Source: Escherichia phage cardinal. Taken from it: a stretch of DNA of 64,000 nucleotides. Location of the stretch: the sequence record PQ567651.1, one strand, 5' to 3'. Position numbers and translations under genes: made by a program. Below the pieces are notes generated by a model. That model did not search any database. It had not been told where the DNA came from and saw only the letters and a list, made by a program, of their open reading frames with translations. The first letter of the stretch is position 1. Every line of letters starts with the position of its first letter. Shown here one piece after another: positions 8,332-13,989 of this stretch.

Positions 8332-8787
8332 TCACGATCCCACATTCCCATTTTTGATACCATAAATAGAATCATAAGGGCTTGCCTCTACGAACTCCTT
8401 ATCTGCGTAAGCGATAAGTTTATTTTTGAGATCTTCATTTTGTGTGTATTTAAGATACAAACCACGTTTGACAATCTTCTCCCGTAAAGAAGTCCAGGTA
8501 TCTTCATCATAATCTTTAACTAATCTGCCTAGACGTTTATAATATGCTTGTTCTTTTTCTCCTGTATATCTTAGATCTCCGGTTAAAATAGAAGATGCAA
8601 TATTGTAATCATAAAACAAACATGCTTTTCTCCACATCATATATTGTTCCACACAAGTAAATTCGACAGAACTTGTGATAGAATTATTATACTTGGGAGC
8701 TAAAGGTTCAATAAAAGATGATAGATACCAGTTGCTAAATTCATCTTTTGCCGAGAAAAAGAACACATACTTGTCAGTAATCCGCAT
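8332..8787 (-). CDS. NADAR (YbiA/DUF1768-like) domain protein, putative ADP-ribose N-glycosidase
   Basis: 151 aa; FFFS..DEFSN, CVEQYMMWRKA, YKRLGR, WTSLREKIVKRGLYLKYTQNEDLKNKL and SPYDSIYGIKNG align with the conserved blocks of E. coli YbiA. Confidence 0.65.
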   Translation of the reverse strand: MRITDKYVFFFSAKDEFSNWYLSSFIEPLAPKYNNSITSSVEFTCVEQYMMWRKACLFYDYNIASSILTGDLRYTGEKEQAYYKRLGRLVKDYDEDTWTSLREKIVKRGLYLKYTQNEDLKNKLIAYADKEFVEASPYDSIYGIKNGNVGS

Positions 8788-10185
8788 TTACACCTCCTTA
8801 TTGTATACTAATTTGCCACCATATTGTGTAACAATTTTTTGAAGATTTTCCAAATCAGAAACACTTACTGTTTCTGTATGACCATCTTTCAACTCTCTTG
8901 CCGTTAAAATACCAGTTTTTAATTTTTTCTTTATAGCTCTTTCAGCAGCCTTACATTGTTTCACTGTGCTAAAATCATATAAACAAATACGCTCCATAGG
9001 AAACATATTACAGCTATTTTGACGTTTTAATCGACTATCACTATTTTTAGCTATACCAAACTTAAGAGCAACTATAATATTATCATCCTTAACAATATTA
9101 ATATATAACTGCTGCTGACTATGACCAGCACACATAGGACAACCTCGACCGTGGCTTAATAAGGCATTAGCCCTCCCTGTCTGTTCCCCATGCACAAGAC
9201 AAAGATATTTAAACTTACCGTGACTTCTAGACGGTTTACCGATCCAACCTACCCAGACATACCCTTTCCCTTCTACTTCCTTTTTTACCCTGTAGGTAAT
9301 CTGATTTTCTGTATAGTGATAACTAGTTGCACAGCGGCAAGGGATACTTCCTTGTTTTAGGGGCCACCCTTTAGAGTAAAATTTACCATCGCAAACACCT
9401 GCTTGAACATATTCATCATGGGAGCAAACAGGACACTCAACCATCCATACTGCATCACGCTTGTTACGTTTCCCTGTATTGGTGAAGATAGTGCCTTCCT
9501 TAAATTTCCCTGTAGAAAAGAAATCTGCAATATGTTGATCGTCGGACATTGTTAGTGCCTTCCTTGTATTCTCATACCTACATAAAGGACAACCATAACC
9601 ACGTTTAAAATTGTTAATACTTGTAGTATCCCATTTATAACCACAGTGACACAACAAATCAAGTTTTGTTTTATGTCCTTTCCATTTTCCAACGTACCCT
9701 AACACCTGATACCCCTTCTTCTGTGCTATCTCTTCCAAGATCGGTAATTCTGTTTCCCATGCTAACGGTTTATTACTTGCACATGCCGGACAACCACGTC
9801 CATTCCTAAAATCAATAATGTTTGTGGTGTTCCACTCTCCATGTTTAGGGCAAATTATGCGAATTTTTGTTCGCACACCTCGCCACTCCTCGGCAAGACC
9901 TATAAAAGTAAACCCTCTTTCTTTAGCAATATCAACAAGGGAGATACATTCCTTTTCTTCTGTTACTTTTCTATGACCATTGCAATCGGAGCAACATTTA
10001 CCGCCTTTAGTTTTAAATACATTGATTATGGTACTTTCCCACTCTCCATGATCAGAGCAAGATAGCTTAAGCCTAGTCCTGCTACCTTTCCATTCACCAA
10101 CATAACCCAAGATTTGAATATTGTGATTTTTAGCAAGGGGTATTAATTCTTCTTTATATTGTTCCCATGATTTTAGTGCTACCAT
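8788..10185 (-). CDS. protein with five tandem zinc-ribbon-like repeats and a C-terminal T5orf172/GIY-YIG-like domain
   Basis: Five ~50-aa repeats of the form GY.G.WKG..T...L.C..HGEW......F..G.GC..C; C-terminus IVALKFGIAKNSDSRLKRQ...AERAIKKKL resembles the T5orf172 family. Confidence 0.5.
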   Translation of the reverse strand: MVALKSWEQYKEELIPLAKNHNIQILGYVGEWKGSRTRLKLSCSDHGEWESTIINVFKTKGGKCCSDCNGHRKVTEEKECISLVDIAKERGFTFIGLAEEWRGVRTKIRIICPKHGEWNTTNIIDFRNGRGCPACASNKPLAWETELPILEEIAQKKGYQVLGYVGKWKGHKTKLDLLCHCGYKWDTTSINNFKRGYGCPLCRYENTRKALTMSDDQHIADFFSTGKFKEGTIFTNTGKRNKRDAVWMVECPVCSHDEYVQAGVCDGKFYSKGWPLKQGSIPCRCATSYHYTENQITYRVKKEVEGKGYVWVGWIGKPSRSHGKFKYLCLVHGEQTGRANALLSHGRGCPMCAGHSQQQLYINIVKDDNIIVALKFGIAKNSDSRLKRQNSCNMFPMERICLYDFSTVKQCKAAERAIKKKLKTGILTARELKDGHTETVSVSDLENLQKIVTQYGGKLVYNKEV

Positions 10186-10259: not shown

Positions 10260-11294
10260 TTAAAACACACTTGCCAAAGTTGCACCATTGGTGATAGTTG
10301 GTTCCAGAACAATACGGAAAGAATCTTCTGGATCATCACTAAACACAACGATTTTACCGCCTGTAATAAGGTCTGCTTTCATTTTTGTCGCATTCAATGG
10401 AATTCGAGCATCTCCTTCATCATCAAAAACCACGTAAGAGCTATTAGCAAGGGCTTCTTTAGAGTCTGCATCACTTGGAGATGACAAGTACACGTCTAGT
10501 GTGCACGAACCACCTAAAAAGATTGCAGGTGTGAAGTTATGCCAACTAGATACCCAGCTAACTTTCTGAAGTTTTCCATTAATAACAACGCTGCTGATAT
10601 CCCATTTATTACCACCACCTAAAGAAACACCCATCATAGAGATGCATTCTTTAAAGGATAAATCAGGGTAGAAATTAAGTTCTTCTACTATACCTTGGAT
10701 CACATCAAAGGACAACTCTAAACTTACATCCCAAAGTCTTTGGAAATTATCAAAGTGTGCTTTGTTATCCAGGTTTTTATCTAAATAGTCAATCATAGTT
10801 TCTAGTGAGATTTTATCATAATTAAAATTATAAAACACACGACTAGGACGATTTAAAAAGAATTCAGAGATAAAACCACTGTTTTTAGTCAGAATAAACA
10901 GTTTATTACCACTGCCAGTACCATCTAACAAAGTGAGAAGTGCTTCTTGATCTTGTTTCTTCTCATACACTTTATCAAACTCGTCAAAAATAATCACTGC
11001 TTTGTCGGTGATCTTGCTAATAAGTTCAATGAAATTAGCATCGCTGTAGGCTTGAGTAACCATAATAGTTGGAATACCTTCTTCTACAAGGTCACGACTA
11101 ATGAGTTTGGCTAACATAGTTTTACCACTGCCCTTAGTTCCTGTCAGGAGCAAACCTGTATTTTTACCTTGTGCACTCCGGCGATGGAATGTACGAATAA
11201 CGTGATTTGCTCGTTTTTCTGTTTCACCATACAGAACATCCGGTACACCTGTTAGATTACCACGGCTTAAAAAAATAATTGCCAAGGGGATCAC
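10260..11294 (-). CDS. AAA-type P-loop ATPase; N-terminal ~30 codons lie in another frame (to ~11388)
   Basis: Walker A GTKGSGKT and Walker B IIFDEFDK; clear paralog of 26400..27560; N-terminal homology continues in a different frame up to an RBS-preceded ATG at 11388. Confidence 0.6.
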   Translation of the reverse strand: MIPLAIIFLSRGNLTGVPDVLYGETEKRANHVIRTFHRRSAQGKNTGLLLTGTKGSGKTMLAKLISRDLVEEGIPTIMVTQAYSDANFIELISKITDKAVIIFDEFDKVYEKKQDQEALLTLLDGTGSGNKLFILTKNSGFISEFFLNRPSRVFYNFNYDKISLETMIDYLDKNLDNKAHFDNFQRLWDVSLELSFDVIQGIVEELNFYPDLSFKECISMMGVSLGGGNKWDISSVVINGKLQKVSWVSSWHNFTPAIFLGGSCTLDVYLSSPSDADSKEALANSSYVVFDDEGDARIPLNATKMKADLITGGKIVVFSDDPEDSFRIVLEPTITNGATLASVF

Positions 11295-11400
11295 GACTAA
11301 CAGTATAGAATCCAGGTGGAAGATAGTTAGATTCCACGCCCATATCTTTATTTACACTTACAATATCACCATAAATCGTGTATTTCATTTTAAACCCCTT

Positions 11401-12046: not shown

Positions 12047-12298
12047 TTAAAATTCAACCACCACTTTATCGAGGTGCTCTGCTTCAACTTGATCTAATGT
12101 TAACACCTCAACTAAACCCTTGTCAATACCTAATTTAATAACATCAACATATTGTCCAAACAGATCCTGAATAGATATCTTGTGTTCGACAACAACCACT
12201 ACTTCATTCCCTTTTGTGAATTCTCTCCATACACGTCCACATTTGAAAATAAAGTCTGCTTCATCTGCTGTTATCATTTTAGGTTTGATACTTAACAT
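12047..12298 (-). CDS. hypothetical small protein
   Basis: 83-aa ORF; stop overlaps the start of the upstream gene. Confidence 0.4.
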   Translation of the reverse strand: MLSIKPKMITADEADFIFKCGRVWREFTKGNEVVVVVEHKISIQDLFGQYVDVIKLGIDKGLVEVLTLDQVEAEHLDKVVVEF

Positions 12299-12849
12299 TA
12301 TAAAACTCCGTATTCCGGCTCAAAATCATATTTTTCACAAATCATGTCCCAGCGTTCGTTGCCGAAGCTGCGACCACAAATTGCATCGTAAGCATAATGC
12401 TCTGCTAACCATTTTACAACAGTGTCTACATCGTTATCAAGTGGTAATCTGAATTCTTTGCCATATCGCATACGAAGAACAAATTCATCCCCTTCTTCAA
12501 ACAAGTGCATATGGCTTTTTGCATAAGAAGCCAAGTTGAAAAAAGATACCTCTTCCCAGCATTCTTTTTCCACTGCAATCCCGTGATCAACAACTAAAGC
12601 ACCGATAACGCGATACATAATAGGGCTAAACAGTGCGCTTGAGCTAGGCTGCTCTTCAACTACAGACCAACCTGTTCCCTGCCAAATTTCATTTTTGAAC
12701 CATTGTTGCATGTCATTCCCTTTTTCATCTACAAGGGATCGGTTACGCATTTCAAACCATTCTCCTTCGCAAAAGTATTTATGTTTAACACGTTTGCCTT
12801 TTAACATTGCTTCTTTGGCTTCTATCCAAGTCAGATCGGTGTTTTGCAT
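12298..12849 (-). CDS. hypothetical protein, possibly DUF2829-like N-terminal domain
   Basis: Start chosen at the GAGGAG-preceded ATG (MQNTDLTWIEAKEAMLKGKRVKHKYF...); the W.EA..A...GK.V pattern resembles DUF2829, family assignment uncertain. Confidence 0.4.
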   Translation of the reverse strand: MQNTDLTWIEAKEAMLKGKRVKHKYFCEGEWFEMRNRSLVDEKGNDMQQWFKNEIWQGTGWSVVEEQPSSSALFSPIMYRVIGALVVDHGIAVEKECWEEVSFFNLASYAKSHMHLFEEGDEFVLRMRYGKEFRLPLDNDVDTVVKWLAEHYAYDAICGRSFGNERWDMICEKYDFEPEYGVL

Positions 12850-12968
12850 TCGTTTATCTCCTCTCATTTGTGTATGCATTAAGATTAGCACAATAAAACA
12901 GTATGTCAATACTTGATCTGAAATTAATTTCTGGTATTCTGTGTGTATCGTAACAAAAGAGGTTAGAT

Positions 12969-13259
12969 ATGAACATCACACTAGCAACTAAGAATATTAC
13001 AGAAACTTTTGATGGTTTTGGCATTATTATTGCTGTTCATGGGCATAACGAAAAATGGTTAGCCTCTTTTGAAGAGGACAAAGAACGCAATGTACGTTTG
13101 AATGCACCAATCAAAGTTTTACACCAGGTAGGTGAGAATAAGAAACAATGGAGATCATACAAAGAGTGGAACATTACGAACGAGTTAATACACAAACTTG
13201 ACAAAGTGATAAACATGTTCGACAATGCACCAAGCAGTGCAAAACGTGTTTTACTATAA
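12969..13259 (+). CDS. hypothetical early protein
   Basis: 96-aa ORF, first gene of the long plus-strand block. Confidence 0.45.
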   Translation: MNITLATKNITETFDGFGIIIAVHGHNEKWLASFEEDKERNVRLNAPIKVLHQVGENKKQWRSYKEWNITNELIHKLDKVINMFDNAPSSAKRVLL

Positions 13260-13270
13260 AGGAGAGTGAT

Positions 13271-13624
13271 ATGAAAATTGTACACGATGAAATTCAATTT
13301 GAAGAGAGTGATCTTCTTGATCTAGATGTAGCACTAAGTAAACTGATCTACAATGCACTTTCTGCTTATCGTGCAAAAGTGATAGCCACAAACAATGTTA
13401 AAATTCCTAGTGGGTTACTTCGTCGGATGTACCCACACGCTAAAGGTGACTATCTACCTTATATGGAAGAACGAGCAGCAGAGCACTGGTTGGAAATTCT
13501 TGAAAAAATGGAGTCTTCTTTTAAGGACTCAACTCCACCAGAAGAAGTTAATGAAAAACAGCGGCAAGATCGTTTAGAAGGTCGTATTTTGTTTGCTAAG
13601 TATTTTCATAATCTGTGGATGTAA
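13271..13624 (+). CDS. hypothetical protein
   Basis: 117-aa ORF; AGGAG RBS. Confidence 0.45.
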   Translation: MKIVHDEIQFEESDLLDLDVALSKLIYNALSAYRAKVIATNNVKIPSGLLRRMYPHAKGDYLPYMEERAAEHWLEILEKMESSFKDSTPPEEVNEKQRQDRLEGRILFAKYFHNLWM

Positions 13625-13788
13625 CAAGGAGTAAACATGGTTATCTACAAAAATAAGTTCACTGGCTGTCTGCGTAAATTTATTGACAAAAAAGGGTATG
13701 TTTCTGTTGACAATGGTGTTACGTGGGTGCAAAATGGCACTTCAGAACAACTGATCAAGGCTTTACCTTACTATGAGGAGTTTACAAA

Positions 13789-13989
13789 ATGACAGGATGG
13801 GCAAAAGTAGAAGATCCATACGATATCCCACTAGGTGAGTATGTGGTGGTAATGGAAGATGGTGGAAAAGGGTATTGTGAAGTGCATAAAAGTATGTCTG
13901 GTAAGATTATTGTGGTGAACCATCATTTTCACTTTGATTACCCTCCCATTGTGGCATATATGCCTTTACCTAAATATGAAGGGGATTAA
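13789..13989 (+). CDS. hypothetical small protein
   Basis: 66-aa ORF. Confidence 0.4.
   Translation: MTGWAKVEDPYDIPLGEYVVVMEDGGKGYCEVHKSMSGKIIVVNHHFHFDYPPIVAYMPLPKYEGD

Follow-up and report, generated by a model that had tools for sequence, protein, structure and literature searches.

Tad2-family sponges, which act against Thoeris I, II and IV, against cyclic-oligonucleotide-based antiphage signalling systems (CBASS) and against Pycsar, rank among the most versatile phage counter-defence proteins known. The members taken here as a reference set (SPO1 gp34.65, ModTad2, HgmTad2/AcrIIA7 and SptTad2; Pfam family PF11195, Tad2-like or DUF2829) are proteins of 85–105 residues. In Tad2, W25 and W73 provide the main van der Waals contacts to glycocyclic ADP-ribose (gcADPR), and an insertion between strands β2 and β3 carries helix α2, part of the V-shaped dimer interface; it is this same insertion that, in HgmTad2 and SptTad2, also builds a cyclic-dinucleotide pocket. 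Fusions of one sponge to another, for example Tad2-Acb4 and Tad2-Sequestin, are documented. Here we compare with these systems a gene of Escherichia phage cardinal that lies within a 64,000-nucleotide stretch of record PQ567651.1 (hereafter the window). The gene encodes a two-domain accessory protein of 183 residues, the product of a lineage-specific gene fusion, for which early timing is presumed, and which is a candidate new counter-defence protein.

As modelled, its N-terminal domain (N-domain) belongs with the Tad2/DUF2829 sponge fold, as a minimal relative that has diverged strongly. A template-free AlphaFold2 model of residues 1–67, drawn from 32 sequences, has a predicted local distance difference test (pLDDT) score of 91.6, and upon comparison with the PDB by Foldseek the best 12 matches are all Tad2 chains (SPO1, Spt and Mod), with probabilities up to 0.97, template modelling (TM) scores on the query of 0.58–0.72 and E-values of 0.25–2; the next matches are unrelated proteins with a probability of 0.15 or less. 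Structural similarity to Tad2, which a sequence-only reading of this DNA had named as something to check for, is clear in the predicted model, and it is essentially to Tad2 alone. The model keeps helix α1 (residues 8–16), an antiparallel sheet (strands 21–23, 32–35, 38–41 and 61–63) and the short α3 turn. Like the N-domain, Tad2 is a small acidic protein that opens with a helix, continues into an antiparallel sheet and closes with a short helical turn at the C-terminus, with the start motif h-x-x-A-x-x-A-h-x-x-G-K-+-V and the end motif G/D-W-x-[IV]-[IV]; on a low-confidence alignment, the N-domain also has aromatics at the W25 and W73 positions. The N-domain differs in being only ~60 residues long, in lacking the β2–β3 insertion, in reading F-[TC]-x-[DE]-E-[WYF]-F where Tad2 reads GWNGKGM, and in its fusion here to an unrelated 111-residue domain.

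Sequence comparison places the relationship at the level of distant homology, on evidence that is consistent though weak. Against PF11195 the protein gives no match even at E ≤ 10 and stays below the gathering score; six of the 32 members of the N-domain family do match, all sub-threshold (best E 0.0046), and a locally built Tad2 hidden Markov model (HMM) scores 9 bits or less. Among all PDB sequences, the top match of the N-domain family profile is SptTad2 (E 0.36), in an alignment that takes in both the α1 motif and the C-terminal W motif. When the N-domain profile was aligned by hhalign with a Tad2 alignment of 57 homologues retrieved from viral contigs, the probability was 79–81% (E ~1e-5), as against 2% or less in 20 column-shuffled controls, the confident part being limited to residues 2–27, i.e., the helix and first strand. 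The proposal that the N-terminus (the peptide DLTWIEAKEAMLKGKRVKHKYFCEGEW, residues 5–31 of the product) resembles the start of DUF2829 proteins is thereby upheld beyond chance, for the first ~66 residues only. The description of the whole protein as DUF2829-like fares less evenly: fold and distant homology are retained, Pfam membership is not, and the description covers one third of the protein.

A PHROGs search divides the protein in the same way, with residues 1–69 assigned to phrog_3474 and phrog_22208 and residues 73–182 to phrog_11295. Across the N-domain family the conserved residues are A11, G18, H23, F26, E30, E42, G44, W50, W56, Q57, G60 and W61, those from H23 onward forming the family's own signature. 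By tblastn of both halves against 50,697 phage records, the N-domain is present in 404, most of them from phages of Klebsiella, Escherichia, Salmonella, Citrobacter, Erwinia and Cronobacter, and stands alone in ~370; the C-terminal domain (C-domain) is rarer, at 134 records, and 31 records have the two halves fused, each at no less than 80% identity. Among 1.84 billion representatives searched exhaustively with HMMER there were 45 relatives, most of which are stand-alone N-domains (~60 residues) or stand-alone C-domains (~110 residues). One metagenomic relative of 175 residues (P0017) carries two N-domains in tandem in a single polypeptide and is possibly a covalent dimer of the module, compatible with an oligomeric unit though no proof of one. 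Four others (P0004, P0012, P0014 and P0045) join the N-domain to a basic tail ending KGKGHNKLKKGKKK, another (P0041) to a Cys-rich tail, and larger N-domain fusions also exist. The same strongly basic tail (…YKGKGHNKLKKGKKK) follows a variable linker in these four proteins and in gp042 of Phapecoctavirus ukendt, which come from different phages. A 5,991-residue sequence (P0003, E 1.6e-19) was rejected as a relative, its score being the sum of ~28 weak matches of 8 bits or less each, between residues 26–53 and a C-x-G-x-W-x-I-T-R-T-W-S-L-V-D-D-C-G-N repeat; a repetitive 521-residue sequence (P0020) was likewise left out.

What the minimal domain keeps of Tad2 is best seen around the two known pockets. 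In the extended hhalign alignment Tad2 residues ~36–59, which make up the β2–β3 insertion, face gaps, and in the model there is no helix between strands 32–35 and 38–41. The surroundings of the gcADPR pocket, namely the β1–β2 loop, the β3–β4 loop, strand β4 and helix α3, are all retained. The Tad2 contact residues are W25, N26, W73 and D79 in SPO1/ModTad2 numbering, and their mapping onto the N-domain is alignment-based and of low confidence beyond residues 2–27. On this mapping, W25 corresponds to an F26 that is invariant in the N-domain family, W73 to W50 (W in 23 of 32 sequences, F in seven) and, outside the contact set, W85 to W61. The N26 position is occupied by T, C or S, so that its polar contact is not clearly kept; the same holds for D79, which falls in a variable column beside a conserved E54, and the G-K-G sequence of the Tad2 β1–β2 loop is replaced by an acidic x-D/E-E. 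If any ligand is bound, the chemistry of binding differs from that of canonical Tad2, and for the N-domain an HgmTad2-type site for cyclic dinucleotides is excluded.

The C-domain is, in its predicted model, an unrelated α/β module in which a helix, a five-stranded sheet and a further helix fit the sandwich fold of class I chaperones of type III secretion systems and of the YbjN/AmyR family. The match to these neighbours is moderate, at ~10% identity, and searches of Pfam, NCBIfam and PDB sequences gave no match that would place the domain in the CesT or YbjN families. It differs from both in being a phage protein with no secretion system and in having a signature of its own (K111-S112-H113, R128-Y129, G159-R160 and W167, full-length numbering), a pattern of conservation that would suit a site for phosphate or a nucleotide just as it would a partner-binding surface. 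Pfam gives no match to the C-domain or its relatives, which are thus neither Sequestin (PF21825) nor Acb4 (PF13876). By published description, moreover, Sequestin is helical whereas the C-domain is α/β; Lockin is a β-rich hexamer absent from sequenced phages, Acb5 is known from Actinobacteria and Bacillus phages, and TadIV-1 is a helical dimer, and none of these was accepted as its identity.

The best-supported reading of the whole, tentative but quite possible, is of a fusion protein acting in counter-defence, in which the mini-Tad2 module would sequester a signal of the ADP-ribose type. The N-module would oligomerise and take up a small nucleotide-derived immune signal in a pocket that F26 and W50, conserved aromatics equivalent to Tad2 W25 and W73, would line; since the pocket elements that are kept are solely those of the gcADPR type, an ADP-ribose-type Thoeris signal would be likelier than a cyclic dinucleotide. 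The C-module might then add a second activity, be it the binding of a protein (or dimerisation) or a further ligand site formed from the conserved K-S-H, R-Y and G-R motifs, and such a two-activity design would parallel the known sponge–sponge fusions. In Acb4-Tad2 (Pasteurella phage Pm86) and Tad2-Sequestin, too, a Tad2-type module is joined to a small phage-specific module that also occurs stand-alone, although the partners there belong to PF13876 and the all-helical PF21825, whereas the C-domain has no Pfam match and is α/β and chaperone-like. We count in favour of a counter-defence role the varied occurrence of the N-domain (stand-alone, duplicated in tandem, fused to other modules, degraded in phage Bas61), which amounts to accessory behaviour, and the position of the gene in a divergent, presumably early operon together with an orthologue of NADAR-Bas60, described below.

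A good deal weighs on the other side. To the failure to match PF11195, the shortness of the confident alignment, the uncertain N26 and D79 positions and the acidic β1–β2 loop must be added the missing β2–β3 insertion with its helix α2, which leaves the oligomer that would build a pocket putative. In published experiments, phage Bas60 PaulScherrer is restricted by 3'3'-cGAMP (cyclic GMP-AMP) CBASS, and cGAMP accumulates in the infected cells; since Bas60 has the same gene, the protein does not neutralise 3'3'-cGAMP, a result with which the exclusion of an HgmTad2-type site agrees. Bas61, in which the N-domain is lost, still grows on K-12, and the relatives with the basic KGKGHNKLKKGKKK tail hint at roles beyond that of a simple sponge.

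A bolder form of the sponge proposal, which we consider unlikely, is that the ~60-residue mini-Tad2 constitutes a widespread and unrecognised branch of the Tad2 superfamily, with its own oligomer and an altered pocket (H23, F26, E30, E42, W50 and Q57) that sequesters an immune signal, and that, by guilt-by-fusion, PHROG 11295 is a second new counter-defence module. The branch corresponds to PHROG 3474/22208, is without a Pfam family, and occurs in ~400 sequenced phages of Escherichia, Klebsiella, Salmonella, Citrobacter, Erwinia and Cronobacter; a literature search found no paper linking these phages or the fusion gene to Tad2. Surveys have gathered Tad2 through PF11195 or HHpred matches, and a ~60-residue branch under the Pfam gathering score may be under-counted in them, though common in therapeutic-type enterobacterial phages. 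Were signal binding true, the smallest functional Tad2 core would be defined, the essential parts of the fold would be revealed, and a new ligand specificity might emerge, while the fusion gives a guilt-by-association handle on the second family. Bas60, with the intact fusion, and Bas61, with the degraded N-domain, form a natural near-isogenic pair in the public BASEL collection, and the hypothesis is therefore cheap to test.

The main rival reading, rather doubtful but little less probable than the first, is that the Tad2-like fold is real but that the protein acts by protein binding and is no signal sponge, the chaperone-like C-domain binding the translationally coupled 83-residue product of the next gene, the AAA ATPase, a defence effector or some other host or phage protein, and the mini-Tad2 serving as an oligomerisation or adaptor module. 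Although the C-domain fold match behind this idea is moderate (10% identity, no sequence family match), the overlap or synteny of the C-domain gene with the 83-residue gene and the AAA ATPase is conserved across Stephanstirmvirinae. A homologue of the 83-residue gene follows the C-domain gene in the identical manner, with the TAATG overlap, in both ukendt and Bas61; in Klebsiella phage phi1_175008 one gene intervenes; and the 83-residue product may be a functional partner of the C-domain. Also in favour, the polar residues with which Tad2 contacts its ligand are not clearly kept, and the partners of the N-domain are very different from one another (basic tail, Cys-rich tail, unrelated domains); yet the homologues are mostly stand-alone 60-residue proteins, and the conserved surface-type residues of the N-domain, the same six that would form the altered pocket, suggest a specific site for a ligand or partner and not a passive scaffold.

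That the Tad2 similarity is instead convergent, or an artefact of modelling a small domain, with the N-domain an unrelated helix-plus-sheet module, is improbable. The Foldseek E-values are admittedly just 0.25–2, the HMM similarity is sub-threshold and confined to the amphipathic helix and the G-K-x-V motif, and the model is predicted, with 32 sequences behind it; that model was, however, made free of templates, the profile–profile score far exceeds its shuffled controls, and three different comparisons align identical motifs at the N- and C-terminus.

The origin of the fusion can be followed in related phages. Ukendt encodes the two domains in separate genes, one on each strand: the N-domain protein gp042 (147 residues, with the basic tail) heads a leftward operon (L082 2272–2715), and the C-domain protein gp047 (112 residues) is encoded fifth in a rightward operon, followed by gp048, the homologue of the 83-residue gene. 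Bas61 EmilieFrey, which is congeneric with the window phage, orders its genes much as ukendt does, and the flanking genes are nearly identical. Its bas61_0098 (L112 1314–1628) is an N-domain remnant, codons 1–34, joined in frame to the next gene, which is a homologue of the window's 51-residue gene, and Bas61 is a natural N-domain-deficient relative of Bas60. By blastn against Bas61, a segment of ~0.9 kb in the window, containing N-domain codons 1–34, the intergenic region and the genes for 96- and 117-residue proteins, is reversed relative to both of its flanks, which points to inversion of a divergent-promoter cassette as the event that placed the N-domain gene head-to-tail before the C-domain gene. 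As read from the sequences, the in-frame join would have removed the N-domain tail, its stop and the C-domain start: L73 (CTG) stands where stand-alone C-domain genes have their start Met, and an internal Shine-Dalgarno sequence is absent. The fusion is probably the derived state, because three related arrangements keep the domains apart, those of ukendt and phi1_175008, which are more distant, and that of congeneric Bas61. No convincing inverted repeats were found at the ends of the inversion, those there being weak (21 nucleotides, 76% complementary and offset from the breakpoints). The 96-residue DUF7325 protein encoded inside the inverted segment is 100% identical to its Bas61 homologue despite this location.

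It is hardly credible that the fused frame is an annotation or assembly artefact and that two separate proteins are made, for although related phages have the domains in separate genes and a homopolymer frameshift does occur elsewhere in the window, in the gene for the ATPase, 31 independent phage records contain the unbroken 183-codon frame at 80% identity or more, as does a protein cluster of 136 members, and the former C-domain start is now CTG with no Shine-Dalgarno sequence upstream.

The open reading frame (ORF) itself has exactly the borders first given for it, to which we add its strand, minus, which had been left unsaid. Its ATG is at 12849 and its TAA stop at 12298–12300, the stop sharing bases with the start codon of the following gene (TAATG). 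With phi92 gp217 the protein shares 98% identity, and the ~3 kb around the gene are 98–99% identical to Justusliebigvirus phages (phi92-like, Stephanstirmvirinae); both gp217 and the Bas60 counterpart, a coding sequence of 552 nucleotides, are annotated as hypothetical proteins. As a single sequence the protein gave just one, spurious, match in Pfam (CdiI_N, E 0.096), none in NCBIfam, and chance matches only in a phmmer search of the PDB. Within the 64-kb window neither a second copy of either domain, nor a canonical Tad2, nor any tRNA was found. The features discussed here are collected below.

Table 1. Coordinates in the window of the fusion gene, its parts and its neighbours
Feature	Position	Strand	Remarks
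NADAR-domain gene	8335–8787	minus	Pfam E 9e-30; last in leftward operon, 3.5 kb downstream of the fusion gene
465-residue protein	8788–10185	minus	Five CapR homology domains (Pfam E 9e-50), with T5orf172 at the C-terminus; between ATPase and NADAR genes
AAA ATPase	10260–11388	minus	Split into ORFs of 43 and 344 residues; labelled 'FtsH-like protease' in Bas60
83-residue gene	12047–12298	minus	PHROG 4868; start overlaps stop of the fusion gene as TAATG
Fusion gene, complete ORF	12298–12849	minus	183 residues plus stop; orthologue of phi92 gp217 and Bas60 bas60_0105
C-terminal domain, residues 73–183	12301–12633	minus	PHROG 11295 family; α/β fold (model)
Linker, residues 67–72 (QPSSSA)	12634–12651	minus	Short; L73 (CTG) follows
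N-terminal domain, residues 1–66	12652–12849	minus	Minimal Tad2-like fold (model); PHROG 3474/22208 family
Segment inverted relative to Bas61	12748–13619		Opposite orientation to both flanks (blastn)
Intergenic region	12850–12968		Between divergent leftward (headed by the fusion gene) and rightward operons
Shine-Dalgarno AGGAG	12858–12862	minus	Strong; 8 nucleotides upstream of the ATG of the fusion gene; read directly from the sequence
96-residue DUF7325 gene	12969–13259	plus	Pfam E 2e-19; first of divergent rightward operon
51-residue gene	13637–13792		Homologue joined to the N-domain remnant in Bas61

The fusion gene heads a leftward operon that continues with the 83-residue gene, genes for 57- and 145-residue products, the AAA ATPase, the CapR/T5orf172 protein and the NADAR-domain gene. 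The last of these is the orthologue of NADAR-Bas60, because the published forward cloning primer for NADAR-Bas60 matches it with one mismatch. NADAR-Bas60 is an ADP-ribosylglycohydrolase shown experimentally to counter DarTG1, and the leftward operon therefore already carries one validated counter-defence gene, acting on ADP-ribose chemistry. The enzyme is unrelated to the fusion protein and is relevant only as genomic context, but a place in a divergent operon with a validated counter-defence gene, early expression presumed, is a further likeness to Tad2. A simple sigma-70 scan of the intergenic region found no promoter, and divergent early promoters are presumed. In a T7-like contig, the RNA polymerase gene is directly preceded by a stand-alone homologue of the N-domain, in what is the classic early anti-defence position.

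Among the smaller genes of the operon, the 57-residue product is visibly hydrophobic by sequence. The split in the ATPase gene, near 11269, comes down to one extra homopolymer base on the plus strand (A8 here, A7 in Bas60) and may mark a pseudogene, slippage or an error in sequencing; apart from this base, the ATPase sequences of the window and of Bas60 are 99% identical.
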